Shown piece by piece: positions 1-17,850 of a DNA stretch of 64,000 nucleotides. A program made the translations under genes and the position numbers. The notes beneath the pieces are model-generated. The model was given only the letters and a program-made list of their open reading frames with translations, had not been told where the DNA came from and did not search any database. How positions within the stretch are numbered: the stretch's first letter is position 1; each line of letters begins with the position of its first letter. This DNA is from a virus (Duplodnaviria > Caudoviricetes), in the IMG/VR virus record IMGVR_UViG_3300027797_000026, positions 3,381 to 67,380 of that record. The stretch is one strand, 5' to 3'.

Positions 1-90
1 ATCAAGTTCTAACTTAGCAAGTGATTGCTCTAGTGCCTTGATGATTTTAGGTGTTGCGATTTTTACTGAGATTGCTTTTCCTCTAGCCAT
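1..90 (-). CDS. hypothetical early protein, 5' part only (MARGKAISVKIATPKIIKALEQ...)
   Basis: ATG at 90 after AACGAAAGAGGA RBS and conserved promoter at 124-145; runs off window. Confidence 0.7.
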   Translation of the reverse strand, partial: MARGKAISVKIATPKIIKALEQSLAKLELD

Positions 91-123
91 TTGTTTCCTC
101 TTTCGTTGGTTGGTTGGTTGATT

Positions 124-145
124 AGTATAGCAGTTGCTACTGACA
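124..145 (-). promoter_or_regulatory. conserved early promoter copy 1 (TGTCAG-N10-TATACT)
   Basis: same motif and spacing as six other copies. Confidence 0.75.
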
Positions 146-253
146 TTTTCCCCGAAGGGAGAGAGTTCTTACTTACGACATTGGACTAGAACACTCTCTG
201 AAACTGTCCCTGTTTCGTGGCTTAGCACCCGATTAGTGGTGTGTGCCTCCGTC

Positions 254-436
254 TTATGCGCCTGTTAGGGCTGAGTCGCTAACTGTTGTCCAACGAGTTT
301 CCTTTGTTGGCATTTCTAGTAGCACTCGCACCGAGCCAGATGCGTTAGGAATAATCTCTTTGATTACTCCTGTCTTTTTTGACTTTAGGGTGGTGAATAA
401 ATCGCCAACCTTGTATGTGTATCCATTTACTGTCAT
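254..436 (-). CDS. small hypothetical protein (SH3-like beta-barrel pattern)
   Basis: ORF with GAAAGGAAG RBS downstream of promoter copy 2. Confidence 0.7.
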   Translation of the reverse strand: MTVNGYTYKVGDLFTTLKSKKTGVIKEIIPNASGSVRVLLEMPTKETRWTTVSDSALTGA

Positions 437-462
437 TTTGCTTCCTTTCTGTTTAGGGTCTT

Positions 463-538
463 ATTGTAGCATTGGGGTGTGACATTCGTCTAGCCCTATC
501 TCACCATGTGAGAATGTTATTGTGTGACCTTAGTCACT
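463..538 (-). promoter_or_regulatory. early promoter copy 2 (TGTCAC-N10-TACAAT, 463-484) with CRP-like box TGTGA-CCTTAG-TCACT (523-538)
   Basis: direct motif match. Confidence 0.7.
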
Positions 539-799
539 TTCAGGTAGCCAAAACTCTAGGTGGTGTTGTTCGATAATAGCGGAGGCGGGTGCAAATTTTT
601 CTCCACGATACGACACGCCTTCAGGCATTGCGATTAGTTTATTATAATCCTCATCATAGTATGCATCAATAGCATCAATGCAAGGTTGTACCATAGATAG
701 CGGAACGGGTGGATAGTGATTACCCTGTAAGTGATAACCTAATTGTGTTTCCAAATCTAACACGCTATCTTGAATACCTAGTGCAGTTACGCTTCCCAT
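530..799 (-). CDS. hypothetical protein
   Basis: ORF coupled to upstream ORF (TAATG overlap). Confidence 0.75.
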   Translation of the reverse strand: MGSVTALGIQDSVLDLETQLGYHLQGNHYPPVPLSMVQPCIDAIDAYYDEDYNKLIAMPEGVSYRGEKFAPASAIIEQHHLEFWLPESD

Positions 800-1002
800 T
801 AGTTAGCAACCTTTAGAATAGCGTATGAGCCATTTTCGTTAATCTCATCAAGAATTGGTTGCAAGCGAGAGCCTACCAATTCCTTTAGCATGCCTTCAAG
901 CATTGTAATACGCATTGACTCATCAAGTGCCATTACCTGTGCAGTTATAGGGTGACCTTCCTTAAACTCTGTTACGAATTTTAGGTTATGTTCTACTATC
1001 AT
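799..1002 (-). CDS. hypothetical protein
   Basis: ORF with AACGAAAGG RBS after promoter copy 3. Confidence 0.75.
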   Translation of the reverse strand: MIVEHNLKFVTEFKEGHPITAQVMALDESMRITMLEGMLKELVGSRLQPILDEINENGSYAILKVAN

Positions 1003-1032
1003 TTTATTGCCTTTCGTTTGTTGGATAAGAGT

Positions 1033-1190
1033 ATTTTAGCATAACCCACTGACATTACCTAATCTATTACCGCATAAGTCTTGTGATAAACCTCACAAAA
1101 TTCCAGGGTGATTTTGATCACACCCGTAACGACACGCCCGACCCCGCAGCTATGTGCGGGATTTTGGCAACTTGTCAAGTCGAAACGCTT
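1033..1190 (-). promoter_or_regulatory. early promoter copy 3 (1033-1054), CRP-like boxes (1082-1097 perfect, 1107-1122) and GACAC/hairpin element
   Basis: direct motif match; 1081-1190 is a diverged copy of 2461-2572. Confidence 0.7.
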
Positions 1191-1289
1191 TTATAGATTA
1201 GAAAAAATATAATAAACAAGAGCAAAAGGCAAAATAGCCAGGGCAATAGTAATCACTCCACCAATTAAACCAATTAGATCATAGATCAT
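1191..1289 (-). CDS. 32-aa membrane peptide (MIYDLIGLIGGVITIALAILPFALVYYIFSNL)
   Basis: hand translation; AAAGGG RBS; one hydrophobic helix. Confidence 0.55.
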   Translation of the reverse strand: MIYDLIGLIGGVITIALAILPFALVYYIFSNL

Positions 1290-1410
1290 TTTTCCCTTTG
1301 TGTTTTATTTTACGTGTGTATTTTTTTTTATTGCGAACAGGTTGCGCCGCATTGCTACGGCGCAATTCCTGAATGCGTTTAACTTTATCTCGAAGAGAGG
1401 TTTGGAACAC
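1279..1410 (-). CDS. small basic protein ending NKKKYTRKIKHK (ArfA-like basic motif)
   Basis: hand translation; GTG start; overlaps both neighbours. Confidence 0.55.
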   Translation of the reverse strand: MFQTSLRDKVKRIQELRRSNAAQPVRNKKKYTRKIKHKGKNDL

Positions 1411-1576
1411 TGTAGCCACACGCCTCATGAAATTTATTCACGTTAAAGTTTGGATTTTCTTTTGCGAACATTAACGCAAAATCATTAACCATTTTAGAAA
1501 AAACAGCGGGATGAGTTTTATCGCTGGCAAACTTTAGAATTTCTGCAGTTGCCTCGAAGTGCTTTCGTGTCATCAT
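1385..1576 (-). CDS. hypothetical protein (MTRKHF...FAKENPNFNVNKF)
   Basis: ORF in tightly packed operon. Confidence 0.75.
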   Translation of the reverse strand: MMTRKHFEATAEILKFASDKTHPAVFSKMVNDFALMFAKENPNFNVNKFHEACGYSVPNLSSR

Positions 1577-1776
1577 TTTACGGATACCATTCCTGTTCTA
1601 TAAAATACCTTTGTGTAGCATTTTCCGCTAGGTGTGTAAAGATTTACAGTTGAGTATTCATCAGCAAATCCCCAGTCAATGAATTTAGCAAACTCGGTGT
1701 GTGCTTCTAATTCATCTGAGTATTCTTTTATAAAGTGTAGCGGTTCGCTATCATTAGCAACAGTTATTTTATACAT
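1573..1776 (-). CDS. hypothetical protein
   Basis: ORF, overlapping neighbours. Confidence 0.7.
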   Translation of the reverse strand: MYKITVANDSEPLHFIKEYSDELEAHTEFAKFIDWGFADEYSTVNLYTPSGKCYTKVFYRTGMVSVK

Positions 1777-2040
1777 TATCGCCTTCCCATTCTAGCGTTA
1801 CACATTCGCATTTTGTGATTTCAATTGTGTTTCCAAATTGTGAAACAGTTGCGAGAGTATCGCAATTATCACAAATAAAAACTCCTTCAAGTACATCAAA
1901 TAGATTTCCCATTTATTCAAACGCTCCTTCGTTTAGTAATCCAATTTCAATGTTAAACAATTCATCTGGTGTTGCTTCGGCTAAATCAACCCAAGAAACG
2001 CCTTCCTCATTTATTCTTGCGAATTCAATGTATCCCATTA

Positions 2041-2241
2041 TTATTCACCAACCTTTACCGCTAAAGTGCGGTGAGCATAACCGCCGTTAGAATTGCGAAC
2101 CTCTACGAGATAACTTTCGCAATCTTGATACCAAACCGCTTTAGGGTGTATCTCCGCTGAGATAATTTCTCCAGTAAGAGATTTAGAGCGATACATTTTT
2201 CCGATTAGTAAATCGGGAATTGAATAGACATTTGCTGACAT
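2041..2241 (-). CDS. hypothetical protein
   Basis: ORF with AACGAAAGAAGG RBS after promoter copy 4. Confidence 0.7.
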   Translation of the reverse strand: MSANVYSIPDLLIGKMYRSKSLTGEIISAEIHPKAVWYQDCESYLVEVRNSNGGYAHRTLAVKVGE

Positions 2242-2357
2242 TATTTGCCTTCTTTCGTTGTTGGAATTGTAATTGTAGCAGATAGGGCTGACAAGGCTTC
2301 TGCCTTGCTTGCTTGGCGGGTGGCGTTTACATACGCCTTGAATTCATCTAGGTTCAT
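2241..2357 (-). CDS. small hypothetical protein (MNLDEFKAYV...), overlaps promoter copy 4 (2272-2293)
   Basis: start moved to 2357, after AACGAAAGAAGG RBS and promoter copy 5. Confidence 0.55.
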   Translation of the reverse strand: MNLDEFKAYVNATRQASKAEALSALSATITIPTTKEGK

Positions 2358-2391
2358 GAATTGACCTTCTTTCGTTGTTGTTATAGTAGAC

Positions 2392-2595
2392 ATTATACAC
2401 GAAAACACTGACAAAAAATAATTACTAGCCAGTAAGTCCATGATGTGAGACGCTCAACGTATGTGATTAATCTCACAAAATTCGGGGGATTTTATAACGT
2501 CTTCATAACGACACGCCCGACCCCGCACCAGTGTGGGGGTGGCGCCCTGAATTGTCAAGGCGACACGCCGTTTATTCTATGTGACCTTCCTCACG
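2392..2595 (-). promoter_or_regulatory. early promoter copy 5 (2392-2413), perfect CRP-like box 2462-2477, GACAC/hairpin element, near-box 2580-2595
   Basis: direct motif match. Confidence 0.7.
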
Positions 2596-2769
2596 CATGT
2601 AGTCCTCATGCTCTACTAGCCCAATCGCAAACGCTACGGGATCGCAACATTCTAGAATTTCGGCGGGGGTGAATGTAGAGTAGCCGATTTTTACTGTAGG
2701 ATAAACATCATTAAGTAAATCTATAAAGCTTTCTTTTATTTCTAAGTCTTGCTCGAATTGTGATTTCAT
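2572..2769 (-). CDS. hypothetical protein
   Basis: ORF track; acidic small protein. Confidence 0.7.
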   Translation of the reverse strand: MKSQFEQDLEIKESFIDLLNDVYPTVKIGYSTFTPAEILECCDPVAFAIGLVEHEDYMREEGHIE

Positions 2770-2878
2770 TTAGTTAATTCTCTCATCTCTTCTAGAAAGT
2801 CATGCCATACAATGCGCCCCATGTAGAGGGCGGGTACTATAAGGGCTAATTGCACTAGGGTAGTTAGTAGTCTATTCA

Positions 2879-3073
2879 TTAGTTAGCCCATAAATCATTA
2901 GTAGCGTTATCTAGTGAGTAATTCTCTACTACTTTTTTATTGCGTATGCGCTTATAAATCTTATAAGCGATTATAGATAAGGCGGTCAAGATAATGAACG
3001 CCCATGATAGGGATAGATAAATAAAGTCTCCCATGTCGAACATGAAGCCGTAGTCATTTAGTTCAATAGTCAT
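2879..3073 (-). CDS. small membrane protein
   Basis: one hydrophobic segment followed by basic residues. Confidence 0.65.
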   Translation of the reverse strand: MTIELNDYGFMFDMGDFIYLSLSWAFIILTALSIIAYKIYKRIRNKKVVENYSLDNATNDLWAN

Positions 3074-3265
3074 TTATTTATCTCCGAACATGTTAAAGAC
3101 CTCGTCTAGTTGCTCATCTGTTAAGTGGTCTAGTTGGATAGCCTTAGAAAAGCCTAGTACATCATCTTCATCATTATCTAGTGCCTTATTGTATTCTTCT
3201 TCTTCATCTAGGTGAATGTATGCGTCTGATACGTCTGCCTGTATAGTGTCCCATTTAGTCATCAT
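3074..3265 (-). CDS. small acidic hypothetical protein
   Basis: ORF with GAAAGGTAG RBS. Confidence 0.7.
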   Translation of the reverse strand: MMTKWDTIQADVSDAYIHLDEEEEYNKALDNDEDDVLGFSKAIQLDHLTDEQLDEVFNMFGDK

Positions 3266-3452
3266 TAGTTCTGTTCTACCTTTCGTAGGTGTGCTACAAC
3301 ATTTTTAGAAATTGACTGTAAATCTTTTACTGTCTTATTCATTTCGTCTGCGCTAGTTGCGGTAAAGAAACCGAGAAACTGTGCGCTGTCCCATAGTGAG
3401 TATGTGATTGTCATTTTATTTTTTCTTCTTTCGTTAGTTGGTTATAGTTGGA

Positions 3453-3528
3453 ATTATAGCGGATAGGTCGGACATTATCAAGGCGACACGCCGTAGCGTA
3501 TGCCCTATGCGGTGTGAGTTGGCTCACA
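3453..3528 (-). promoter_or_regulatory. early promoter copy 6 (TTGATA-17-TATAAT with TGTCCG in spacer) and perfect CRP-like box 3513-3528
   Basis: direct motif match. Confidence 0.75.
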
Positions 3529-3641
3529 TCTCGCATGGTATAGGGCGGGGGCTAAAACTACCTGCCCGCATGGACAGAGGTTCATTAGACCTCTAGGGTA
3601 GTTATTTACAGTAGCGAAAGGCTCGAAAATTCGATTAGTCA

Positions 3642-3812
3642 TTACTTAACCTCCTTACAGATACACTCGATACAGTAGCAAGCCTTGCTACTAAGTAGGT
3701 CACGCAATAGAGCCTTGCGTGTGTAGGCGTTTAATCCATAAGAGGACTTTACTCCACCATTGTGGAAATCATGCACGATTGTGCTATAGATTGTTTCTGT
3801 TAATTGAGTCAT
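3642..3812 (-). CDS. hypothetical protein with C-terminal CxCxxC (MTQLTETIY...)
   Basis: start moved to ATG after GAAAGGAG RBS. Confidence 0.6.
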   Translation of the reverse strand: MTQLTETIYSTIVHDFHNGGVKSSYGLNAYTRKALLRDLLSSKACYCIECICKEVK

Positions 3813-3859
3813 TATCTGACTCCTTTCTAGTAAGAGTTTCTTACTTTCTTTATACTTTA

Positions 3860-3934
3860 AGCATAACACGGGGCACTGACAAATAGAGGCATTACTGGCT
3901 AGTATTAAAATAAATCTTTGTGATAGTCGTCACA
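3860..3934 (-). promoter_or_regulatory. early promoter copy 7 (3860-3881) and perfect CRP-like box 3919-3934
   Basis: direct motif match. Confidence 0.7.
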
Positions 3935-4081
3935 TTCACGCTCAAGGTCATTTATCTATGTGCGGACTATGCAGACAAAACGGACATTTCAAATACGTGT
4001 ATCATACATATTAAAAATTTATTAACATTTTGTAAGATCTCAAATAGCAGTTGACTAAAATACAGATGATATAATTAATAC

Positions 4082-4699
4082 ATGACAACAAAAACAGTTA
4101 TAATAAATTCTCCACCTGGAAGCGGGAATACCTATTTAACTTATTTATTAAAAAAAGTTATTGAATGTGATGAAGTAACCGTAAACCATGATCTAGAGAT
4201 ATTAAATAGTGATCTAAAACAAGTTGCTTTAATTAGAAATCCTTATGAATCAATTGCGTCTGCAGCAAGTAGGCATTTTTTTGCAAACGAATATCCAATA
4301 CCAGAAGAAGACAAGTGGAACATTGAAGATACTAAAATCATTCAAGTATCAATAAACGACTATATGCATAGAAGTAGGTTGTTTTTTGAATCTATTCAAA
4401 AAAAATCTGATCATATTAAACTTATTGCATTTGATGATTTTAAAAATAATGAATTAAAATATGCAGAAGAGATTGCAAAATTTTATAATTTTGAATTTAA
4501 AGATCCTGATTACGATATTAATGAGTTTATTTACAAAGAGGCAACTGATTTTGGAGTTGGCTCTAGACTCTCAAATACAAAAAGTAAAGAAAGAGAAATT
4601 TTAGATGAAATGGTAAGGTCTTATAATAAAATTGAAGAAGTATATGAGACCTATTTGGCTATAAAAGATAGTATTCAGTCAACTAGAAATATGCTATAA
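4082..4699 (+). CDS. sulfotransferase-like (P-loop) protein
   Basis: SPPGSGNT and IRNPYESIAS resemble 5'-PSB and 3'-PB PAPS-binding motifs; leaderless start after TGATATAAT. Confidence 0.55.
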   Translation: MTTKTVIINSPPGSGNTYLTYLLKKVIECDEVTVNHDLEILNSDLKQVALIRNPYESIASAASRHFFANEYPIPEEDKWNIEDTKIIQVSINDYMHRSRLFFESIQKKSDHIKLIAFDDFKNNELKYAEEIAKFYNFEFKDPDYDINEFIYKEATDFGVGSRLSNTKSKEREILDEMVRSYNKIEEVYETYLAIKDSIQSTRNML

Positions 4700-4706
4700 T
4701 AATATT

Positions 4707-4823
4707 ATGAAATGTGACTTTTGCGAAAACCCAAAGTATGTTGAGCGTATTAATGCTAAAGGCATACTCGAAAATTTTTGCACAAACTGCATTGAAAAAT
4801 TAGTAGCAAGCCGAATACGCTAG
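4707..4823 (+). CDS. 38-aa Zn-finger peptide (CDFC...CTNC)
   Basis: hand translation; leaderless after TGCTATAAT. Confidence 0.55.
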   Translation: MKCDFCENPKYVERINAKGILENFCTNCIEKLVASRIR

Positions 4824-4829
4824 TCCCTA

Positions 4830-4904
4830 GGGGATATAGCTTAATCTGGTTAAAGCACTTGTCTTATATACAATAGATTCTGGGTTCAAATCCCAGTATC
4901 CCTA
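4830..4904 (+). tRNA. tRNA-Ile (anticodon UAU)
   Basis: acceptor GGGGATA/TATCCCT, D-loop TGG, anticodon loop CT-TAT-AT (4865-4867), T arm CTGGG-TTCAAAT-CCCAG; no encoded CCA. Confidence 0.85.
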
Positions 4905-4918
4905 CAATGGAGAAATAT

Positions 4919-5584
4919 ATGAAAAATGTTTATATGCTAAGTGATTGTCACTTATCTAGAGCCATAGAGCATTATTATCCAGAGCTACACGATGTAACAT
5001 TTATTCCTTGGCCTAAAGCTGGACTAAAGATGCATGCATTTAGTATTGAAAAAATGCGGGAAGAAAACGAAATGTCATCTGGAGTTGAATTTACAAGAAC
5101 TGTCAATCATTTGCCACAACCAATATCAATTGTTAAAGATGATGGCATATTAGCCTTATGGATGGGATATGTAGACACTAGAACATTCTTGCCTAGGTAT
5201 AAAAATGCAGATGCTACAGTAAAAGCTTTTATCGACAATATTAAATTAAACTTTCCTAATTCTCGTGTTGTGATTATAGAGCCATTGCCTCAGTTTACTG
5301 AGATGCTGCTAAAGCATGAAGGGATTAGTCCTTACTACACACATGAGCAGAGGATAGATCAGAATAGAGAGCTATTGGCTGCATTACACAAGTATGCAAG
5401 TGAAGCGGGATTCGAAATAATTATTACTCAGCAAGATATATTAGATGCAATAGAAGTTCCTGAGCTAATTCCATCTATGACTCATACAGATGCTCCACAT
5501 CCAGTAGATGGATTAAAACCTGAGTATATGAAAAAAGTCTGGAAATTATTTTCAGATAAACTTAGTATTATTGCAGTTGACTAG
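4919..5584 (+). CDS. SGNH/GDSL-hydrolase-like protein, degenerate catalytic motifs
   Basis: LSDCH (GDSH-like), MGYVD, DGLKP (DGLHP-like) blocks; GGAGA RBS before 4919. Confidence 0.5.
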   Translation: MKNVYMLSDCHLSRAIEHYYPELHDVTFIPWPKAGLKMHAFSIEKMREENEMSSGVEFTRTVNHLPQPISIVKDDGILALWMGYVDTRTFLPRYKNADATVKAFIDNIKLNFPNSRVVIIEPLPQFTEMLLKHEGISPYYTHEQRIDQNRELLAALHKYASEAGFEIIITQQDILDAIEVPELIPSMTHTDAPHPVDGLKPEYMKKVWKLFSDKLSIIAVD

Positions 5585-5591
5585 GATATAT

Positions 5592-5882
5592 ATGACTTGG
5601 ATACAGGTAGCAATTATACTTTCATCAATAGTACTTTTCTTACTAGTATTTTGGGGTGATAGAAAATGAAAAAGATTTACGCAGGGATATTTCTAATTGC
5701 GACAGCAATCCTTACAGGAGCTATGTTGTCTTCATTTTTAAAATGGGCGGGGGACAAAGAGATCTTTGATCTTGATGACGAATATGACCTATAAGAAGTG
5801 GAAAGTATATATCTATCTAATTAGATTCTCTATGACTCTTATCAGTCTATATATCGTCCTACTTGCTACTGGGAAAATTTAG
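5592..5882 (+). CDS. three overlapping tiny membrane peptides (5592-5669, 5666-5794, 5784-5882)
   Basis: hand translation; each has one hydrophobic helix; overlapping start/stop. Confidence 0.5.
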
Positions 5883-5993
5883 AATAATTACGTAAAGGCC
5901 TTTTTTGGCCCCCTCCCGTCCTTGGGTAGGCAAAGAGTCCAGAAATGGCTTAGAGAGCCTCTAGAGGCTTTATAAAGGGTATTTCAGATAATA

Positions 5994-6009
5994 TGTTCCA
6001 CGTGAAACC
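5994..6009. promoter_or_regulatory. parS: parS-like site TGTTCCACGTGAAACC
   Basis: one mismatch to bacterial parS consensus TGTTNCACGTGAAACA; intergenic between convergent genes. Confidence 0.65.
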
Positions 6010-6071
6010 ATATATTACAGTTGACTGGAATGTTCTTCTCTCGCGGCGCACTTTTTCGCACTATATAGCGA

Positions 6072-6920
6072 TTAGTGTTCTTTAAAATCACCCATAAATG
6101 CATCAGAAAGTTTTTCTCCTTCTAATCCAGAGGCCTGATACTTTTTAATCAGCTCTCTTGTAAATTGTGGGTTTTCTTTTAGGGGTTGCATCCACTTACC
6201 AATAAATTGCATAAATGTAATGTCGTCTTTATCTTTAATCTGCTCGTAATATTCTGGAGTCTTGTAGTTATAAAATGTTCCAGGGTTATCTTCTGCTTTT
6301 AGCACAAAGTTTGAGAAAGCATATCTTCTTCCAGAATCAACTGGCTTAACTCCGTGTGCATGTGTATTAAAAGCTCCGTGAATAATAAGGTCGCCTCTTT
6401 CTGGCTTTATTCTTAGCTGATCTTCTTCTTTAACTGCATCTTGTCTAATTCCGTCTTTGTCTATATTTACATAGAATATTTCTCCGCCAACAAAATCTCC
6501 AAAATAAGCAACTAAACCAAAATCAAGCTCGCAGCAAGTTTTCCATACATCAACCTGTGACAATCTGTGGCACTCGCCTTTTCCAGGTGAGTCTGAATGA
6601 GTAAACATTCCTTCGTTCATTTCTGGAGTAATAATTAATACGTTTCCTTGTGGGTGCATTACATACTCTGGGTACAAAAGCTCACTTGCCTTTTCCCAAA
6701 GCGGGTGTATAGCTTCAAGTGGTGGGCTTATTTTATTAGAGTACCAGCTTATAAGAGTGTCCATGTATTCTTGGTCGCACTTATAGTCTTTAAGTTCTTC
6801 TTCAACCGTTTTGCACTCTTCATCGGTAAAAAATCCTTTAAATATAAAAACTCCACTTTGTGTGCCGTACTCATCTAAAAAGAATGAGGCCTTGATACAA
6901 TCTTCTCTGTCATAAAACAT
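6072..6920 (-). CDS. 2OG-Fe(II) oxygenase, prolyl-4-hydroxylase-like
   Basis: HSD...GGEI...HGVKPVDSGRRY (HxD..H..R). Confidence 0.85.
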   Translation of the reverse strand: MFYDREDCIKASFFLDEYGTQSGVFIFKGFFTDEECKTVEEELKDYKCDQEYMDTLISWYSNKISPPLEAIHPLWEKASELLYPEYVMHPQGNVLIITPEMNEGMFTHSDSPGKGECHRLSQVDVWKTCCELDFGLVAYFGDFVGGEIFYVNIDKDGIRQDAVKEEDQLRIKPERGDLIIHGAFNTHAHGVKPVDSGRRYAFSNFVLKAEDNPGTFYNYKTPEYYEQIKDKDDITFMQFIGKWMQPLKENPQFTRELIKKYQASGLEGEKLSDAFMGDFKEH

Positions 6921-7069
6921 TATTTGTTAACCATCTTTCTAATAATTTTTTCCAATTTGGAATCGGGTTTTTTCTTCTTCATTGTGTGCTCAATTTTACA
7001 ATCTGTGTCACATGCGTCAACATGATTGAATTGTGGGCTAGCCATAAACTTAGCAAAGTGATGAACCAT
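6920..7069 (-). CDS. 49-aa hypothetical protein
   Basis: hand translation; TAATG coupling to oxygenase; TGATATAAT just upstream. Confidence 0.5.
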   Translation of the reverse strand: MVHHFAKFMASPQFNHVDACDTDCKIEHTMKKKKPDSKLEKIIRKMVNK

Positions 7070-7090
7070 AGTAATTATATTATATCATGC

Positions 7091-7166
7091 AAAACCCCTA
7101 CAGAGGCGGATCCGTAGGGGTTATGTGCATCTTCATGCATACGCCAGGATTGACTCAACTAGCGTA
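7091..7166 (-). ncRNA. candidate ~75-nt small RNA (three hairpins, the last an intrinsic terminator)
   Basis: TTGATT-17-TATCAT upstream; stems ACGCTAG/CTGGCGT, TGCAT/ATGCA, AACCCCTAC/GTAGGGGTT+T tail; no ORF. Confidence 0.45.
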
Positions 7167-7203
7167 ATTATATGATAGTATATTTATTATTAAAAATCAA
7201 TAC

Positions 7204-7386
7204 TTAAAATATATTTTTTTCAAACATTTTTTCTACAACTTGAGCTAATAAAAACTCAATGGACACATGGTACTCGACATTTTTGGCATCTGCTTCATCT
7301 GGCGTAATGCCGCTGTTTATCATAGCTTCTTTATTAGCATTTTCAAACTCAGCTATCATAAAACGTAATAGTTCTTCTTTATTCAT
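7204..7386 (-). CDS. hypothetical protein (MNKEELLRF...)
   Basis: start moved to ATG after CAGGAG RBS. Confidence 0.6.
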   Translation of the reverse strand: MNKEELLRFMIAEFENANKEAMINSGITPDEADAKNVEYHVSIEFLLAQVVEKMFEKNIF

Positions 7387-7591
7387 TTTCTTCTCCTGGG
7401 TTAAAGGACGGAACTGGTCCCAAAAGGTATCCCGCCTCATGATACTCAATCATTTTTTCAACATCTTTTGGATCTGCAACTTTGCTAGCTATAAGGCTAA
7501 GCAAGTCATATATTCTGTGGAGCATTATGTAGGTAACCATTGGTAGGCTATCTTCTAAATTGCTAGTTTCCGCCTTCTGGTCTTCCTGCAT
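7379..7591 (-). CDS. hypothetical protein
   Basis: ORF in operon. Confidence 0.7.
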   Translation of the reverse strand: MQEDQKAETSNLEDSLPMVTYIMLHRIYDLLSLIASKVADPKDVEKMIEYHEAGYLLGPVPSFNPGEENE

Positions 7592-7650
7592 CTTCCCACC
7601 AAATTTCTCTTCCCATAGAATCCGTAGGGGAAACTATGTCAGACTCAAAC

Positions 7651-7866
7651 TCAAACTCTTTTTTGCTCATTTACTAATTCTACTATACTTTCATATTTTG
7701 TTATGCCAATAGTATTTTTATAATCACACTCTAGGCAATATAAATATATATAGTCATCTCCGTCGCCGTTACATTGAAGAGAGCCCTGATCCTGTGGGCA
7801 TAAAAGCTTAGGAACAAGGCCCTCTTCCGAAAGTTTAATGTATGTAGACACGTATTGTATCCTCAT
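7651..7866 (-). CDS. Zn-ribbon hypothetical protein (CPQD...CLEC)
   Basis: ORF with GAAAGGAAG RBS. Confidence 0.7.
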   Translation of the reverse strand: MRIQYVSTYIKLSEEGLVPKLLCPQDQGSLQCNGDGDDYIYLYCLECDYKNTIGITKYESIVELVNEQKRV

Positions 7867-7878
7867 TACACTTCCTTT

Positions 7879-8427
7879 CTAATTTGTAGGGAATTTCAAA
7901 TAAAATTCCTTTGCTCTTTGGGTTAAACCCTTCCAAGCTGACCAATTAATACCGCCATTAGTCATGTGATACGCTATCTCTGCATTTATAGTTGGGTCAA
8001 ATAATAGTACGTTTGACTTTAAGTTAAATTTTTCTTTACGATCTGTGCCGAGTGAACCCAACATATTGATCTGAAAAATTCCGTAGGAACTGTCTCCAGT
8101 ATTCCTGTTGCCATTATATGCCATTGGTCGTCCGTTAGACTCCCTCTTAGCAATGGCCCAAGCCATTTTAAGGCCCTTACCTTCAAAACCTACTGCCATT
8201 AAAAGATCTTTTAAATCTTCGTCTGACAGAGCCTGAGAAGGCTTGTAAACAGTATTGCTGTACTTTTCTAAGGTTTCTTTCTTAAGTTGTACTTCTGTCT
8301 TTGGTTTTACTATTAAAGCTTGAGCGGCTGGTGCACCAACTGTATTCGAAAACAAAAACATTACTGTGATTGCAATCGCTGCATATTGATGAACAATATC
8401 GCTTAAGCTTTTCTTTATATTCTCCAT
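7879..8427 (-). CDS. secreted lysozyme-like / lytic transglycosylase
   Basis: AIAKRES (catalytic E), SYGIFQIN, WSAW motifs; N-terminal hydrophobic segment ending AQA; AAGGAGG RBS. Confidence 0.8.
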   Translation of the reverse strand: MENIKKSLSDIVHQYAAIAITVMFLFSNTVGAPAAQALIVKPKTEVQLKKETLEKYSNTVYKPSQALSDEDLKDLLMAVGFEGKGLKMAWAIAKRESNGRPMAYNGNRNTGDSSYGIFQINMLGSLGTDRKEKFNLKSNVLLFDPTINAEIAYHMTNGGINWSAWKGLTQRAKEFYLKFPTN

Positions 8428-8460
8428 TGGCATTTCCTCCTTTAGAGATAGCGAACTATA

Positions 8461-8529
8461 ATCATACCATTTGAATTAAGAATATGTCAAATCATTTTTC
8501 CTTGACAAAGAATATGTAAATAGTATACT
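8461..8529. promoter_or_regulatory. divergent sigmaA-type promoters (minus: TTGACA-18-TATGAT; plus: TTGACA-16-TATACT)
   Basis: direct motif match; AAGAATATGT direct repeat. Confidence 0.65.
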
Positions 8530-8530
8530 T

Positions 8531-8670
8531 CCAATAGGGGGGTCGGGGGGTCAGCAAATCAACATAAATCAACATATATTATATATATGTATATATAGAG
8601 TATTATATATTATAGTTAACTAAAAAACAACAACAAAAATTATTTTTCTTTTCTTTTATAAAAAAGTTTG
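8531..8670. other. candidate replication origin (G6-TC-G6, AAATCAACAT x2, long AT-rich tract)
   Basis: non-coding, at the switch of coding strand; function inferred. Confidence 0.4.
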
Positions 8671-8730
8671 ATACACTTAGACTTCACTTAAAAAATAATC
8701 AGTCCGTATGGCGGAAGAAAAAGGCGACAA

Positions 8731-10665
8731 ATGAAAAATACTATCGAAAATCCTTATGAAAACTTTATTGCACTATCAAGATATGCTAAATGGGTAGAAG
8801 CAGAAGGACGTAGAGAGACATGGGGAGAAACAGTAGATAGATACTTTTCTTTTATGACTAACCACTTAGAAAAAAATCACAATTACATTCCAAATGAAAA
8901 GCTAGTTGCGGAATTAAAAGAGTTTGTTTTTGAACGAAATGTAATGCCTTCCATGAGATCTGTAATGACTTCTGGGGCAGCCCTTGAAAGAGATAATGTA
9001 GCAGGATATAACTGTGCTTTCTTGCCAGTTGATTCCCCACGTTCTTTTGATGAAACTATGTATGTTTTGATGTGTGGAACTGGAGTTGGATTCTCAGTAG
9101 AATACAAGTATATTAATAAACTTCCTGCCGTTCCAGAAAAACTTGAAAAAACGGATACAGTTATTGTAGTTGAAGATTCAAAACAAGGATGGGCTAAAGC
9201 ATATCGTGAACTCCTTGCTTCACTTTGGGCAGGATATATTCCAGCAATTGATGTAACAAAAGTTAGACCTTCTGGTGCAAGATTAAAAACAATGGGTGGT
9301 CGCTCATCTGGTCCACAGCCACTTATTAACCTTTTTGATTTTACTATTTCAAAATTTAAAGCTGCAACAGGAAGAAACCTTAAGCCGATTGAATGTCACG
9401 ACATAATGTGCAAAATTGGCGAAGTAGTTGTAGTTGGTGGAGTTAGACGCTCTGCAATGATTTCACTTTCAAATATAAATGACATTGAAATGGCACAAGC
9501 TAAATCAGGTAACTGGTGGGAAGCAAGCCCACAACGTGCACTATCTAATAACTCAGTTGCGTATTCACGCAAGCCAGGAATGGAACAGTTTATTGCAGAA
9601 TGGAAATCACTTTATGACTCAAAATCTGGAGAACGTGGTATATATAACGTTGCAGCAGCACAAGCACAAGCAGCTAAGTTTGGTAGAAGAGATCCAGAGA
9701 TACACTATGGAACTAATCCATGCTCTGAAATTATTTTGCGCCCATATCAGTTCTGCAATCTTTCAGAAGTAGTAGTTCGTGAAAATGATACTAAAAAAGA
9801 CATTCAAAGAAAAGTTGAGTTAGCAACCATACTTGGAACATGGCAATCTACACTTACTGATTTTAAATATCTTAGAAAGATATGGAAAGATAACACAGAA
9901 GAAGAAAGATTACTAGGAGTTTCCTTGACTGGACAATTTGGACACAAGTTTATGTCTGGAAAAGAAGATTTGGTTATGCTTGAAGCATTCCTAATGACTC
10001 TTCGTGAAAAAGCAAGAGAAGTAAATAAAGAAGAGTCTGGGAAAATTGGGATTCCTGAGTCTGCAGCTATTACATGTGTAAAGCCTTCTGGAACAGTATC
10101 TCAATTGGTCGGGGTATCTTCAGGAATGCATCCATGGCATTCTCCATATTATATTCGTACAGTTCGTGGTTCAAAGGGGGATCCAATTTCTACATTTTTA
10201 AAAGAAGTTGGAATTCCAGTAGAAGATGACGTAATGAAGCCAAATGAGACTTATGTATTTTCATTTCCAGTTAAAGCTCCAGAGGGAGCAATTGTAAGAA
10301 ATGACCTTACTGCAATTGATCATTTAAATATTTGGCTAGTTTATCAACGTGCATGGTGTGAACACAAACCATCAATTACTGTTTCTGTAAAAGAAGAAGA
10401 ATGGATGGAAGTAGGGGCTTGGGTATATAAAAACTTTGATGAAGTTTCTGGTATTTCATTCTTGCCTCATTCAGATCATACATATAAACAAGCTCCATAC
10501 CAAGAAGTCTCAAAAGAAGAGTATGAGGCATTAGTTTCAAAGATGCCCAACAATATTCGTTGGGAAGACCTATCGTTTTATGAGACAGAAGATGGAACCT
10601 CACCCTCTGCCACCCTCGCATGTAGCTCAGACGGCAATTGCGAACTTGTAGATATATCTGCCTAG
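8731..10665 (+). CDS. nrdJ: class II (adenosylcobalamin-dependent) ribonucleotide reductase
   Basis: YNCAF, GGVRRSA, TNPCSEI, KPSGT and C-terminal Cys pair; no beta subunit nearby. Confidence 0.92.
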   Translation: MKNTIENPYENFIALSRYAKWVEAEGRRETWGETVDRYFSFMTNHLEKNHNYIPNEKLVAELKEFVFERNVMPSMRSVMTSGAALERDNVAGYNCAFLPVDSPRSFDETMYVLMCGTGVGFSVEYKYINKLPAVPEKLEKTDTVIVVEDSKQGWAKAYRELLASLWAGYIPAIDVTKVRPSGARLKTMGGRSSGPQPLINLFDFTISKFKAATGRNLKPIECHDIMCKIGEVVVVGGVRRSAMISLSNINDIEMAQAKSGNWWEASPQRALSNNSVAYSRKPGMEQFIAEWKSLYDSKSGERGIYNVAAAQAQAAKFGRRDPEIHYGTNPCSEIILRPYQFCNLSEVVVRENDTKKDIQRKVELATILGTWQSTLTDFKYLRKIWKDNTEEERLLGVSLTGQFGHKFMSGKEDLVMLEAFLMTLREKAREVNKEESGKIGIPESAAITCVKPSGTVSQLVGVSSGMHPWHSPYYIRTVRGSKGDPISTFLKEVGIPVEDDVMKPNETYVFSFPVKAPEGAIVRNDLTAIDHLNIWLVYQRAWCEHKPSITVSVKEEEWMEVGAWVYKNFDEVSGISFLPHSDHTYKQAPYQEVSKEEYEALVSKMPNNIRWEDLSFYETEDGTSPSATLACSSDGNCELVDISA

Positions 10666-10732
10666 TGGTAGAATAATAGTATTGGGTAAAACCAAAATTC
10701 ATGGGCAACACCGCTCAAATGGAGATGACAAA

Positions 10733-10975
10733 ATGGCTATCAAAAATTTTGATAAAGCTGATTTAAATAAAGACGGGAAAGTAACTATGCAAGAACAAAT
10801 CTTAGCAGCACTAGGAACTTACGGAAGAGCATTTTTGGCAGCAGCCACTGCTCTATATATGACTGGAAATACTAATCCAAAGGATTTAATTGCAGCTGGC
10901 GTAGCAGCAATAGCTCCAGTAATTTTAAAGGCACTAAGTCCAAGTAATAAAGAATTTGGATTTACAAGCAAGTAA
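10733..10975 (+). CDS. putative 2-TM holin with N-terminal EF-hand
   Basis: two hydrophobic helices, ...PSNKEFG tail; DLNKDGKVTMQE loop; GGAG RBS. Confidence 0.6.
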   Translation: MAIKNFDKADLNKDGKVTMQEQILAALGTYGRAFLAAATALYMTGNTNPKDLIAAGVAAIAPVILKALSPSNKEFGFTSK

Positions 10976-11042
10976 TTATTAGTCAATTAGGAATGCCCTT
11001 ATGCTAAAATGGTGTAAGGGTATTTCCTTTTAGGGGTAAAAA

Positions 11043-11387
11043 ATGGCAGCTCAAAAAAATTTTCAAGTAGACGAGAATACGACGTTTACTTTTGAGGTAC
11101 AATACCTTGATGAAGAAAATGCTCCAATACAATTAAACCACCATACAGCAAAAATGCAAGTAAGAGATACACAAGGTGGAAAAAAGTTAGCATTTACATT
11201 AACAGAGCAAGACGGAATAGTAATAATACCTTCTTTAGGAAAGCTTTCAGTTTCTTTGTCACCAGAAAGAACTAAAAAGCTTTTTTATCCCAAGTCTGCA
11301 TATGACTTAGTTATAATTGATCCAAGCATTAATATAACAAGACTTCTAGAAGGATATCTAACATTAAATAGGGCGGTAACTATATAA
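11043..11387 (+). CDS. virion structural protein (BppU N-terminal-like Ig fold)
   Basis: AKMQVR...YDL...RLLEG pattern. Confidence 0.6.
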   Translation: MAAQKNFQVDENTTFTFEVQYLDEENAPIQLNHHTAKMQVRDTQGGKKLAFTLTEQDGIVIIPSLGKLSVSLSPERTKKLFYPKSAYDLVIIDPSINITRLLEGYLTLNRAVTI

Positions 11388-11824
11388 TGGCAACCCGCTT
11401 AATTGTAACCGAAAATAATCCACTTGTAGTAGTAAGAGCATCTGGGTCTCCAGGAAGAACAATTATCAGCGGTGCTGGAAATCCAGCAAATTCACTGGGG
11501 GCTCCAGGAGATTTCTATTTTGATACAAACACCACAAGATTTTGGGGTCCAAAGTCATTAGTTTCAAATTCTTGGAATATCCAGAACAGTTTTGTTCTGG
11601 ACAAGCAGGTATCATTTATGTATGCGTGGGAAATGAGCCAGATAACTGGCCCAGTAAATGGCATATATTCAGTTATAATAAATCATAATTTGCAGTTTAA
11701 CCCTAATGTCTTAGTCAAGTCAAGCTCTGGGGACATATTAGAAACTGGAATAGACTATAATAGTATTAACCAAATAACATTGACAATGGCCCAGCCATTT
11801 TCGGGGACAGCATACCTGTCCTAA
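11387..11824 (+). CDS. virion fibre/decoration protein
   Basis: G.PGDFYFDT...WGPK and HNL motifs typical of fibre proteins. Confidence 0.6.
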   Translation: MATRLIVTENNPLVVVRASGSPGRTIISGAGNPANSLGAPGDFYFDTNTTRFWGPKSLVSNSWNIQNSFVLDKQVSFMYAWEMSQITGPVNGIYSVIINHNLQFNPNVLVKSSSGDILETGIDYNSINQITLTMAQPFSGTAYLS

Positions 11825-11839
11825 AAAGGAGATATAGAA

Positions 11840-13039
11840 ATGGCAAGAAAATTTTTAGTAAGCATTGATTTAAACAAGAATGAGTTACTCAATGCTAGAA
11901 TTCAAAACTTAGGCGCAGCCCCATCAAACCCAGTCATTGGTCAGATCTACTACAACAGTGGCGACAATGTTATGTACTACTACAATGGACTAGCATCACC
12001 AAACGGTCCATGGCAGTCAATGAGTGGTTCTCAAGAAGTAATTCAAGATGCAGTTGGCGCATCAATCGAAGGCGGAGTCGGGTTAACAAAAACATACGTT
12101 GATTCTACAGGAATCACAACAATAGATTTAGACAATACAGCAGTAACAACTGGTTCATACGGATCACAAACAAAGATACCTACATTTACAGTAGATCAGC
12201 AAGGTAGATTAACTGCAGCTGGTGAAGTAGATGTTGCAACAGAGCTTTCAATAACTGGAGACACTGGAACAACTGCAATCTCTCTTCTTACAGAAGGCTT
12301 AACAGTAAATGGCGGAGAAGGAATTGATGTTGCTGTAACAAATAATGCAATTACAATTTCAGCAGAAGATGCAAGCACAACAAACAAAGGTGTTGCTTCT
12401 TTTGATGCAGCAGACTTTAATGTAAATGCAGGAATCGTATCTGTAAAAGATATTAATTTAGATTCACAAACAACAGGTGATTATGTAGCAACAATTGTTG
12501 GAACCGCAAATGAAGTTACAGTTTCACCAAACAGTGGACATAATGCTGCAGTAACAATTGGATTACCAGACAATGTAGAAATTACTGGTAATTTGCAAGT
12601 TGGCGGAAACCTAAATGTTATTGGAACTGTTAATTCTGTAAATACAACTCAGATTAACATTGAAGATAATAAAGTAAAGCTTAATAGCAATTTTACTGGA
12701 ACACCTACAACAGACGCTGGATTAACAGTAGAGCGTGGATCAGAAATAGATGTTGAAATACTATGGAATGAAACATCTGATAAGTGGACATTAACAAATA
12801 ATGGCACAGATTATCATGCAATTACTAGAAAGTATGCCGAAACATTAGGCGCATCAGCAACATCTTATACAATAACACATAACCTTGGAACAACAGATGT
12901 AACTGTTCAGATTTTTGAAGCTGCAGTACCATTTGCTCAAGTAGAAGCAGATGTTCAAAGATCAGCTGCAAATTCTGTAACTATTAACTTTGCCTCTGCA
13001 CCTGCTGCTGGAGAATACAGAGTAGTTGTAGTAGGATAA
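11840..13039 (+). CDS. virion fibre protein
   Basis: TVDQQGRLTAA, GNLNVIGT..VNT, THNLG motifs. Confidence 0.65.
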   Translation: MARKFLVSIDLNKNELLNARIQNLGAAPSNPVIGQIYYNSGDNVMYYYNGLASPNGPWQSMSGSQEVIQDAVGASIEGGVGLTKTYVDSTGITTIDLDNTAVTTGSYGSQTKIPTFTVDQQGRLTAAGEVDVATELSITGDTGTTAISLLTEGLTVNGGEGIDVAVTNNAITISAEDASTTNKGVASFDAADFNVNAGIVSVKDINLDSQTTGDYVATIVGTANEVTVSPNSGHNAAVTIGLPDNVEITGNLQVGGNLNVIGTVNSVNTTQINIEDNKVKLNSNFTGTPTTDAGLTVERGSEIDVEILWNETSDKWTLTNNGTDYHAITRKYAETLGASATSYTITHNLGTTDVTVQIFEAAVPFAQVEADVQRSAANSVTINFASAPAAGEYRVVVVG

Positions 13040-13041
13040 TC

Positions 13042-13500
13042 ATGTCTAGACAAATGCTAGTCCCACTAAGACTTCTAGCTTTGTCAACAGACCCAGTTTT
13101 TGGACAAGTTGGCGAAATTTATATAAACACAGTAACCAAAAATTTGCGTGTTCATAATGGAACCACTTGGATAGAGCTAACTCCACCAAGCACAGACCCA
13201 ACACCATTTTACATGCACACTCACACATTTGATGGAGATGTTCATACAATTGACATACAGAATCAAATTGATTTTAAATCATTGTCTAATCCAAATACAC
13301 CAGGAAAAGTATTACCAGAAATTATAGGATATGATGGTGGAAATCCAGCAGACAATCTGCTAACACCGTCATTCGTAGAAGAAAGTTTATTTGATGCTGG
13401 GCTATATGACGGCACACAAGAAGAAACAATAGAAACAGGAACAGGTGGCGGAGGTTCCGAAGATTTCGACGCACCATCACTTGATGGAGGAGGCTCATAA
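13042..13500 (+). CDS. virion structural protein
   Basis: GEIYIN..LRVHNGTTW motif; DGG repeats. Confidence 0.55.
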   Translation: MSRQMLVPLRLLALSTDPVFGQVGEIYINTVTKNLRVHNGTTWIELTPPSTDPTPFYMHTHTFDGDVHTIDIQNQIDFKSLSNPNTPGKVLPEIIGYDGGNPADNLLTPSFVEESLFDAGLYDGTQEETIETGTGGGGSEDFDAPSLDGGGS

Positions 13501-15092
13501 TGGCATTAAAAATTCAATTAAGAAGAGACATAGCAGCAAACTGGACAGCAAATAATCCACTTCTTTTAAACGGTGAAATTGGAATAGAAACCGATACACT
13601 AAAGTTTAAAGTTGGAAACGGAACACAAAGATGGAATGTTCTTGGAAGTTATGCTCTAAGGCCAGGAGAAGCAAACGGTGTTGCCACATTAGGATCAGAT
13701 GGCAAGATACCATTGTCACAACTTCCAAGCCAGGTCTCACTTGACGCAGAAGCTTTAATAGCAATACAAAATGCCTTATCTTCAATTACAACAACAAATA
13801 TTTCAGAAGGAAATGGTCTGTATTTTACAAATGCTAGAGCAGTAACCGCAGTAAGTGGATTATTTGATTCAGCGGGATCTTCCGCTAATGCTTTAGATGC
13901 AGCAAAATTAGATGCAACATCAAAGGTAAATGTAGGAATTTCAATTTCATCAACTGACGCAAGCGCAAAAGCTACTCAATCTCTTTTAATTGCAAAAGCA
14001 GATTCTGAGCTATTTACAAACAATGCAATTAATTCACTTACAACATCTGATATAGAAGAAGGAACAAGACTTTATTTTACACCACTAAGAGTTAATAATA
14101 TAGTTGGTCCGCTTATTTCAGAAACAAGAGGATATGTAGATAGCCAACTAGTTGTTGCTAAAGCATATACCGATGCCGCATTAGGTGGATTTACACCACC
14201 ATTAACTAATATAAGCTCTACTTCAGATGTTCCAGAAGGAAGTAATTTATATTTTACAAATTCAAGAGCAATTACAGCAACTCAAGCAGCAAGAACTTCT
14301 GTTTTAGTTTCCGCCCTTGGAGCAGTAGACGATTTAAGAACTGAAATTCAAACTAGTTTAACTAACTATCTTCCAGTATCTGAACGTAATGCAATTAATG
14401 GATTAGCTGGGCTAGATGCAAATAGTAAAATACAAGAAATTCAAATTCCATCAACAATTGCAAGAACAGCGGATGTATCATCTACTGTAACATCTGCAAT
14501 AGCAAATGTTGTTGATTCTGCGCCAACTGCTTTTGATACTCTTAAAGAAATTGCAACGTATATTGTCGCAGACGGGGCTGCCGCCACTGCTTTAGCAACA
14601 CTAGTTGATACAAAGCTTGCATCTACATTGGCAGCAACAACATATTCTCCAATTGTGTCTCCTACATTTACTGGAACAGTTACAATACCAGCAGGGGCAT
14701 TAATATCTGGATATGCAACAGCCATCAACCTAACTTCAGGTTTGTCTTCTACTTTAACCTCTGCTAATGATTACACTGACTTAGCAATAGAAGGAATAGA
14801 AAACTCACTTGGTGGGTATCAGCCAGAAAATGAAAGAAACCAAAGCAATGGGTATGCTGGTCTAGATTCAGCAGGCAAGATATTAACATCTGCTGTGCCA
14901 GCAATATCAAATACAATGCTTGAAAATAATTCAATTACCATAAATGGAACAGCGATAGCACTTGGCGGAACTGTTATTACTGGATACACAAATGGTATAT
15001 CAGGATCAAATATTAATAAAATTACTTATGGAACAAATATAACACCACCTTCAAGCGGAAACTCTGCTGGAGACATCTACATTCAATACTAA
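13500..15092 (+). CDS. fibre protein with Mtd/hyaluronidase-type N-terminal domain
   Basis: IQLRRD..W...NPLL..GEIGIETDT.KFKVGNG; repeated EG.NLYFT..RA and NG.A.LD..GK. Confidence 0.75.
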   Translation: MALKIQLRRDIAANWTANNPLLLNGEIGIETDTLKFKVGNGTQRWNVLGSYALRPGEANGVATLGSDGKIPLSQLPSQVSLDAEALIAIQNALSSITTTNISEGNGLYFTNARAVTAVSGLFDSAGSSANALDAAKLDATSKVNVGISISSTDASAKATQSLLIAKADSELFTNNAINSLTTSDIEEGTRLYFTPLRVNNIVGPLISETRGYVDSQLVVAKAYTDAALGGFTPPLTNISSTSDVPEGSNLYFTNSRAITATQAARTSVLVSALGAVDDLRTEIQTSLTNYLPVSERNAINGLAGLDANSKIQEIQIPSTIARTADVSSTVTSAIANVVDSAPTAFDTLKEIATYIVADGAAATALATLVDTKLASTLAATTYSPIVSPTFTGTVTIPAGALISGYATAINLTSGLSSTLTSANDYTDLAIEGIENSLGGYQPENERNQSNGYAGLDSAGKILTSAVPAISNTMLENNSITINGTAIALGGTVITGYTNGISGSNINKITYGTNITPPSSGNSAGDIYIQY

Positions 15093-15101
15093 GGAGACCA
15101 A

Positions 15102-17519: not shown

Positions 17520-17542
17520 CATTAAATGCTACAATATGTTTT

Positions 17543-17779: not shown

Positions 17780-17850
17780 ATTTAGCCAGTTTATAAATAT
17801 TTATAGGATATAATTAACTAAGTAACACGATTTATACAAGGGGGTAGCCA

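Follow-up and report, generated by a model that had tools for sequence, protein, structure and literature searches.

Candidate PafBC-type promoters in the small-gene arm of an uncultured, putatively actinobacterial phage

A repeated promoter motif confined to one gene arm

The left end of a 64,000-nucleotide (nt) stretch of viral DNA (IMG/VR virus record IMGVR_UViG_3300027797_000026, positions 3,381 to 67,380; hereafter the window) raises the question which factor reads a hexamer, TGTC(A/C)(G/C), that recurs on the minus strand exactly 10 nt upstream of a -10 element. The whole record (G000) comprises 67,380 bp and is rated 62% complete, and the window corresponds to G000:3381-67380. Our favoured answer, to which we give a probability of about 0.7, is that the seven boxes of the window (ten in the record) are PafBC-type promoters, fired by the RNA polymerase (RNAP) of an actinobacterial host together with the host's own PafBC. 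Host PafBC is proposed as the reader because no such factor was found in the searches of the record and its relatives described below.

The pattern TGTCMS-N10-TANNNT matched the window eight times, compared with a mean of 1.94 in 100 dinucleotide shuffles (standard deviation 1.32, maximum 6), none of which reached eight. Seven matches lie on the minus strand at 124-145, 463-484, 1033-1054, 2272-2293, 2392-2413, 3453-3474 and 3860-3881 (P1 to P7 in this order), exactly where a preceding sequence-only reading had placed them. By simple proportion about 0.06 matches are expected on one strand over 3.8 kb, and seven were seen within 124-3881. The eighth match, at 46727-46748 on the minus strand, is isolated and opposite the tape-measure gene, and looks like a chance occurrence. 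Over the whole record the count rises to 11, each on the minus strand, compared with 1+1 in a reversed-pattern control. Ten of them fall within G000:1105-7261, a single 7-kb arm; three more copies are therefore located just left of the window, which cuts the array. Each copy of the window is followed after about 25-45 nt by a Shine-Dalgarno sequence (GAAAGAAGG-like) and the ATG of a small gene.

A canonical extended -10 element (TGn at -15/-14) is present in five of the seven copies (those at 124, 463, 1033, 2272 and 3860). The copy at 3453 has CGn, and in the copy at 2392 the TG is displaced by one base, which makes the earlier count of six copies with TG or CG about right. It had also been stated that P6 alone possesses a recognizable -35 hexamer. 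A consensus scan recovered TTGATA-17-TATAAT (11/12) at this copy, and a weak TAGACG-18-TACAAT at P2 as well.

Correspondence with the PafBC promoter class

The published PafBC (RecA-NDp) promoter motif is tGTCgg(N10)tA(N3)T; its 5' part, the '-26 element', is positioned at -23 to -28, the -10 is canonical and a -35 is absent (PMC8635444). The winged helix of PafB reads the GTC via R46 and R50, and the helix-turn-helix of PafC contacts domain 4 of sigma-A; PafBC is inserted between this domain and the DNA, a mechanism termed 'sigma adaptation' and likened by its authors to that of T4 AsiA/MotA (PMC8635444). The site is identical with the RecA-NDp motif described by Gamulin et al. 2004, and it extends to other Actinobacteria (PMC8223512, PMC6789036). 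PafBC is activated by single-stranded DNA of at least 6 nt, bound across both WYL domains, and joins only a polymerase that is already positioned on such a promoter (PMC11804915).

The phage sites agree with this description. TGTC is present in seven of the seven window copies, a spacing of exactly 10 nt places the box at -28 to -23, a sigma-A type -10 follows, and a conserved -35 is missing, with P6 and 183 of 1084 sites in related loci as exceptions. Judged by its letters, the phage motif is thus a motif with every sequence feature of the PafBC/RecA-NDp class. The promoter, previously described as unusual, can accordingly be matched to a known actinobacterial class. The earlier proposal, made in analogy to the T4 MotA box, that an activator reads a box located at -28 to -23 in place of a -35 agrees with the published PafBC promoters (PMC8635444).

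PafBC promoters and phage sites share the GTC box at -28 to -23, the 10 nt to TAnnnT, the lack of a conserved -35, the non-palindromic site and the organization as a many-copy regulon. They differ in that the phage sites serve an arm of phage genes instead of host repair genes, and in a near-invariant TGTCAG followed by W-S-S and a -10 close to TATAAT. Two further systems are comparable. In the middle promoters of T4 an activator box between the usual -35 and -10 positions also replaces the -35, and a phage programmes the host polymerase. However, T4 brings its own MotA and AsiA to remodel sigma domain 4, genes of a kind not found in our scans of the phage proteins, and its box has another sequence. 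The MotA box has its own consensus and is centred at -30. The DriD promoters of Caulobacter resemble the favoured reading in that a resident WYL activator, triggered by single-stranded DNA, controls a regulon independent of SOS, but DriD is a homodimer with another DNA site in another phylum. We know of no phage that uses DriD.

If the mechanism established in mycobacteria applies to the phage, sigma-A RNAP would recognize the TAnnnT -10, and the PafBC heterodimer, with single-stranded DNA in its WYL domains, would be inserted between the DNA and domain 4 of sigma-A. PafB would use its winged helix to read the GTC within the box (-28 to -23), and the helix-turn-helix of PafC would hold sigma domain 4. 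Under this reading the sites would be transcription starts, the host would possess PafBC and the promoters would need it. Resident PafBC would fire the promoters of the arm and thereby tie the first phage genes to the single-stranded-DNA alarm of the host. To our knowledge, PafBC and sigma adaptation are known only from mycobacterial DNA-repair genes. Our search found no paper describing PafBC-type phage promoters; one on PafBC and mycobacteriophage resistance, cited in PMC12848934, may bear on the matter and lay outside this search. If the favoured reading is correct, the phage would be the first virus that plugs into the PafBC switch and a counterpart to T4 MotA/AsiA that manages without any phage-supplied factor. 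Its sites would provide compact, strong natural PafBC promoters for reporter work as well as a sequence signature by which uncultured phages could be assigned to actinobacterial hosts. A link between DNA damage (e.g. by sunlight) and phage expression in abundant freshwater bacteria would become testable.

Conservation of the motif in related phages

The DUF932 protein encoded in the arm was found in at least 285 viral contigs (300 stretches matched), the best 80 of which are 93-99% identical. When 80 related loci (1.31 Mb) were oriented by the DUF932 gene, 1084 matches to the pattern fell on the strand of the gene and 43 on the opposite one. TGTCAG followed by TA[CT]A[AC]T was counted 891 times at a distance of 10 nt, 17 times at 8 nt and never at 9 or 11 nt. 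A set of 271 non-redundant sites gave the consensus wwwTGTCAG(T/A)(G/C)(C/G)c..cTGcTAyAAT, with only an A-rich leader and the Shine-Dalgarno sequence 3' of the -10. Upstream of -31 there is no information content in these sites and hence no conserved -35. In the -10 consensus TAyAAT, T, A and T were fixed by the search, and the free positions show A at the fourth place in 226/271 and at the fifth in 207/271 sites.

Circularity was avoided in a test in which sites were chosen independently of the box, by -10, Shine-Dalgarno sequence and ATG on the early strand only. Among the resulting 142 non-redundant sites, 84 have TGTCAG and 12 TGTCGG exactly 10 nt upstream, and GTC is located at -27 to -25 in 99.

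Two other ways of reading the consensus were rejected. At P4 and P7 the consensus scan had reused the box with its preceding T as 'TTGTCA' and paired it with another hexamer downstream. As the -35 of an additional -10 17 nt further down, TTGTCA fails, since positions +23 to +28 show no TAnnnT signal in the 271 sites. A TnrA-like or palindromic TGTCA...TACA was also considered. Of the 271 sites, 166 have T and 77 have C as the third base of the -10, and therefore the TACA half-site is not kept.

The relatives also bear on the explanation that these are plain extended -10 promoters of sigma-A, in which TGTCAG merely tunes the spacer or forms a lineage-specific polymerase contact and no activator is involved. 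The TG at -15/-14 in five of the seven window copies, G at -14 in 218 of the 271 sites, the subset of sites with -35-like hexamers and the frequent lack of a -35 in actinobacterial promoters (PMC8635444) would fit this view. However, six fully conserved bases at a fixed distance of 10 nt hold more information than the -10 itself, and the RNAP-sigma-A holoenzyme alone does not recognize PafBC promoters (PMC8635444, figure 5 legend). We therefore regard promoters of this plain kind as quite unlikely.

The bipartite motif could also be read by an alternative sigma factor, as the sequence-only reading had suggested, either sigma-54-like with -24 and -12 elements or phage-encoded. TGTCAG...TGC is superficially similar to TGGCAC-N5-TTGC. 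The sigma-54 consensus consists of GG at -24 and GC at -12 at a fixed spacing, without a TAnnnT -10. The phage box has GT where sigma-54 needs GG, its spacing is one base off and a conserved TAyAAT follows, so that the sequence itself contradicts a sigma-54 promoter. The -10 is of the sigma-A type, the Sigma70_r2 domain was detected in none of five complete relatives, and no sigma factor was found among 93 scanned open reading frames (ORFs) of one of them, the 110-kb genome G001. This explanation is barely credible, and the suggestion of an alternative sigma finds no support.

The confinement of the motif to one arm is likewise a general property. Five complete or near-complete relatives (110-117 kb) contain 14-17 copies each in a single arm of 9-11 kb on one strand and 0-3 elsewhere. 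In total 75 of 80 copies in these genomes are located in the arm, which bears out the earlier idea of a dedicated regulon. A scan of viral contigs with the 10-nt spacer gave many contigs with several matches on one strand, and 3-12 copies on one strand in 58 of the 80 fetched loci among the matches listed; with an 11-nt spacer as control, single matches were obtained in 80 of the 80 loci fetched from the matches listed. Five multi-copy contigs, whose capsid proteases are 42-49% identical to that of G000, harbor 4-10 clustered copies each. In capsid protease they are as distant from G000 as the Streptomyces phages are.

In two distant relatives (G314:12827-12848 and G315:16883-17179), one or two boxes at the arm's head are reversed, resulting in a divergent PafBC-type pair.

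Occurrence in bacterial genomes

In a pattern search of five actinobacterial genomes, a Streptomyces chromosome contained 52 copies compared with two in the reversed control. These copies prefer T/A and then G/C G/C after the box, as the phage sites do. A larger sample comprised 301 Actinomycetota genomes, and one or more matches were found in 249 of them, a number in which seven genomes flagged as unpublished are counted; no other claim rests on these seven. Large genomes harbor 41-73 copies compared with 0-7 in the control, and some small ones are also in excess (21 vs 0, 17 vs 1 and 13 vs 2).

At 12 motif places in five genomes of this sample, a first downstream ORF was found in ten cases, four of them without a family. 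The products include a DUF2779 protein, a type I methylase, the beta clamp, DciA, a DUF763 protein and a BNR protein, which is loosely suggestive of DNA metabolism. Two adjacent WYL genes are present in four of these five genomes. A low-GC actinobacterial genome of 1.5 Mb (G030) encodes a tandem PafB/PafC pair that matches the PafB and PafC chains in solved RNAP-PafBC complexes (E-values 1.8e-13 and 1.6e-18); G030 serves here as an actinobacterial example and not as the host. In a HMMER alignment of its PafB-like protein (L452 ORF 1135-2178, minus strand) with the PafB chain of M. smegmatis, a glutamine is positioned opposite R46 with an arginine adjacent, and R50 is kept (residues counted by hand).

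The phage, its likely host and its life cycle

The genome encodes a portal, protease, capsid, a tape measure of 3001 amino acids (aa), tail fibres, ribonucleotide reductase, helicase, primase and DNA polymerase according to PHROGs. A nucleotide search against cultured phages gave no match. The closest cultured relatives are defined by the capsid protease, which is about 43% identical to the versions of Streptomyces phages (Stanwilliamsviridae) and Rhodococcus phages. WhiB, GP88, DUF932, DUF7455, DNA polymerase III alpha, RecA and KatG were identified by Pfam among the 93 ORFs of G001. Based on WhiB, GP88, DUF932, DUF7455 and the relatives of the capsid protease, we infer that the phage is a large siphovirus of Actinobacteria. 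The phage WhiB matched only one of the 301 Actinomycetota genomes at a strict E-value limit of 1e-10, which is uninformative as to the host.

Neither a tyrosine integrase (0/5) nor a serine recombinase (0/5) was found in the five complete relatives, and no repressor-like family occurs among the 93 ORFs of G001. Given the lack of an integrase in the complete relatives, the simplest reading is that the phage is lytic, as its cultured relatives (Stanwilliamsviridae) presumably are. These results also bear on a temperate cycle in which a prophage would switch on its lytic genes through PafBC promoters upon DNA damage in the host. PafBC is an activator of the DNA-damage response, and induction triggered by damage is common in temperate phages. 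The missing integrase, recombinase and repressor speak against such a cycle, which we consider very unlikely.

Candidate readers within the phage

A WYL domain was detected in none of the five complete relatives, and no PafB/PafC-like frame was found in G000 or G001, where the best E-value was 0.016. The MotA and AsiA families were absent from a Pfam scan of the 93 ORFs of G001 and 20 proteins of G000 (16 of the early arm and 4 flanking), which very small or divergent proteins could escape. The sequence-only reading had left the choice between a phage and a host activator open. Its activator-read box is in line with the published PafBC motif, but the phage-encoded option finds no backing in the WYL and PafB/PafC searches.

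Even so, a protein of the phage might read the box and bridge to sigma-A in the manner of MotA/AsiA, either delivered together with the DNA or produced from an initial promoter that fires unaided. The box varies less than the host consensus in the literature does, and the arm contains about 20 small ORFs without a family that could include such a protein. P6 and 17% of the sites in the relatives have a -35-like hexamer, from which an initial burst without help could arise, and single-stranded DNA would no longer be needed at the start of infection. Against this stand the missing WYL, PafB/PafC, MotA and AsiA proteins and the fact that even the arm's outermost promoter has the box. Moreover, the motif equals the host motif including its spacing and is strongly enriched in actinobacterial chromosomes. 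A reader encoded by the phage therefore appears unlikely; if it existed, the phage would be independent of host PafBC and of DNA damage.

Observations that weigh against host PafBC

Several observations argue against reading by host PafBC. Since PafBC needs single-stranded DNA (PMC11804915), its activity at the start of infection is unexplained. The phage box is an almost invariant TGTCAG, whereas several positions of the M. smegmatis consensus are at most 50% conserved in the published account, and a different reader with the same geometry is possible. A -35-like hexamer (at least 5 of 6 bases) at 16-18 nt was found in 183 of 1084 sites compared with 24 of 1120 random positions. Together with the extended -10 TGn at most sites, this subset may allow some sites to fire without an activator and to provide a first burst.

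Other points concern the distribution of the motif and the identity of the host. Many small actinobacterial genomes show no excess over the control (e.g. 9 vs 18 and 15 vs 18). The KatG of the relative is 57-63% identical to homologues across many phyla; it gives no host signal and thus no support for host PafBC. Two cultured Streptomyces phages were tested, IchabodCrane and Wakanda, and both contain 0 copies. Given the clusters in the contigs with 42-49% identical capsid proteases, the trait therefore spans a deep low-GC uncultured clade and not all relatives.

RNA libraries provide a further point. One freshwater metatranscriptome contains 53% of the sampled words of window positions 1-4100, compared with 6-8% in five others. 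The evidence consists of contigs of four runs on window positions 1-20000, and contigs cannot show starts, strand or level. They run unbroken over P4 and P5 (2029-2736) and over P7 (3388-3993) with no sign of starts, and carry-over of DNA is possible. The summed depth over 1-2668 exceeds that of neighbouring genes in a sum that includes relatives at 90% likeness. The depth of exact-match contigs differs about two-fold (about 11 vs 5-7), and these contigs cross promoters.

A possible role of single-stranded DNA as a trigger

A more far-reaching version of reading by host PafBC is tentative and, in our estimate, doubtful: that a lytic phage uses the single-stranded-DNA alarm of its host as an ignition key, involving resection, a CRP signal and titration of PafBC, across a broad clade. 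Single-stranded DNA for the activation of PafBC beside the promoters would come from the linear genome as it enters, or from resection of this genome by nucleases of the host, and the first genes would fire only once the DNA is inside and under attack. The phased CRP-type palindromes described below would add a second host signal, such as cAMP or the energy state. On replication, the 10-17 high-affinity boxes of each genome copy would pull PafBC-loaded polymerase off the repair and defence regulon of the host. Such a strategy would be common to a broad and abundant clade of uncultured actinophages.

CRP-type palindromes and other elements of the arm

G000 contains five perfect TGTGA-N6-TCACA palindromes compared with about 0.06 expected, and all of them are located in the arm. 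This is the site type of CRP/GlxR regulators. The palindrome at 1082-1097 is centred at -63.5 from the predicted start of P3, that at 2462-2477 at -84.5 from P5, that at 3513-3528 at -74.5 from P6 and that at 3919-3934 at -73.5 from P7. The fifth (G000:2592-2607) lies left of the window, centred at -74.5 from the predicted start of its promoter. Palindromes are thus placed whole helical turns upstream of half the promoters, and the phasing at five different promoters of one genome stands. In the 80 related loci 488 palindromes were counted, with peaks at -74.5 (129), -64.5 (104) and -84.5 (67), that is, in steps of one helical turn; because the relatives are not independent, these counts overstate the support for the palindrome.

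Positions in steps of about 10 bp (-64.5, -74.5 and -84.5) are shared with class I CRP promoters and actinobacterial Crp/GlxR sites. The phage differs from class I CRP promoters in that the partner promoter appears to be of the PafBC type, and the classical CRP positions of E. coli are 2-3 bp nearer to the start than the phage palindromes. Conversely, a CRP-type palindrome in helical phase upstream of half the sites is unlike the published PafBC promoters.

Five copies of the nine-base word GGCGTGTCG are present, all in the arm and on its minus strand only (window 3484-3492, 2561-2569, 2509-2517, 1130-1138 and 611-619). The word contains GTGTC, the complement of the WhiA motif GACAC. Two gaps between operons (window 1060-1200 and 2440-2585, minus strand) have a module of about 130 nt in common. 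Its elements are, in this order, GCGT(G/T)TCG-TTGACAA, a hairpin that is rich in GC and lacks a T tail, GGGCGTGTCGTTA, the CRP-type palindrome and the promoter, and it may represent a terminator plus control region. A search of the window with Rfam detected only the tRNA, without a match in the gaps that hold this module.

Individual promoters and the small-gene arm

Beginning at the outer end of the arm, P7 (3860-3881, minus strand, like all promoters here) has the box TGTCAG and a weak -10, TATGCT, and heads the ORFs 3642-3812 and 3505-3642. The TATGCT version is also present in the relatives G002, G003 and G004. P6 (3453-3474) has the variant box TGTCCG and the -10 TATAAT, with the -35-like TTGATA at 3476-3481 at a distance of 17 nt. 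By its sequence it is a putative hybrid of the box with a true -35-like hexamer, and it heads five small ORFs (3414 to 2572). Promoters of the relatives with spacers much like that of P6 carry TGTCAG; their orthology is deduced from likeness and not from alignment.

P5 (2392-2413) combines TGTCAG with TATAAT and a TG shifted by one base, and heads a 38-aa ORF (2241-2357) whose ATG at 2357 is preceded by a Shine-Dalgarno sequence. P4 (2272-2293), with TGTCAG and the -10 TACAAT directly followed by a second TACAAT, sits within the coding sequence of this P5-driven ORF on the minus strand. It heads ORF 2041-2241 and small ORFs to about 1191. P3 (1033-1054; TGTCAG, -10 TAAAAT) heads the ORFs 799-1002 (67 aa) and 530-799 (89 aa). 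P2 (463-484) has the variant box TGTCAC and the -10 TACAAT, with the weak TAGACG 18 nt 5' of the latter, and heads a 60-aa ORF (254-436). P1 (124-145) has TGTCAG at 140-145, a spacer ending in TGC and the -10 TATACT at 124-129. The 140-aa ORF headed by P1 begins at 90 and exits the left end of the window.

According to the ORF maps, P1 to P7 serve a block of about 20 minus-strand ORFs of 32-89 aa (window 1-3812), for which no Pfam family was found. The block runs on left of the window to G000:28 with the 140-aa ORF, the gene of the DUF932 protein (335 aa), an ORF of 222 aa, the gene of a DUF7455 protein and three further promoters, both families having been identified by Pfam. Judged by the size and layout of the genes, the arm probably contains early genes, which may serve in host takeover.

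Two of the promoters left of the window are located at G000:1272-1293 and G000:1105-1126. One of them has an ATG just 6 nt past the -10, at the 222-aa ORF, whose mRNA may therefore be leaderless. Inside this ORF, ahead of an in-frame ATG, lie a second promoter and a Shine-Dalgarno sequence, which would yield a shorter product.

Other features of the genome

The region of G001 at about 31-53 kb, the part missing from G000, contains genes for KatG, glutathione peroxidase, a GMP reductase/IMPDH-like protein, Hsp20, a subtilase, WhiB and RecA. A tRNA-Asp gene (anticodon GTC) is located within the arm between two promoters (G000:1370-1444, minus strand), and a tRNA-Ile gene (anticodon TAT) just beyond the arm (window 4830-4905, plus strand). 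Amid the tail-fibre genes, six genes of similar size stand in a row (window 23860-28213, plus strand), five of which match 2OG-Fe(II) oxygenase families. An additional oxygenase gene lies close to the arm at 6072-6920 on the minus strand.

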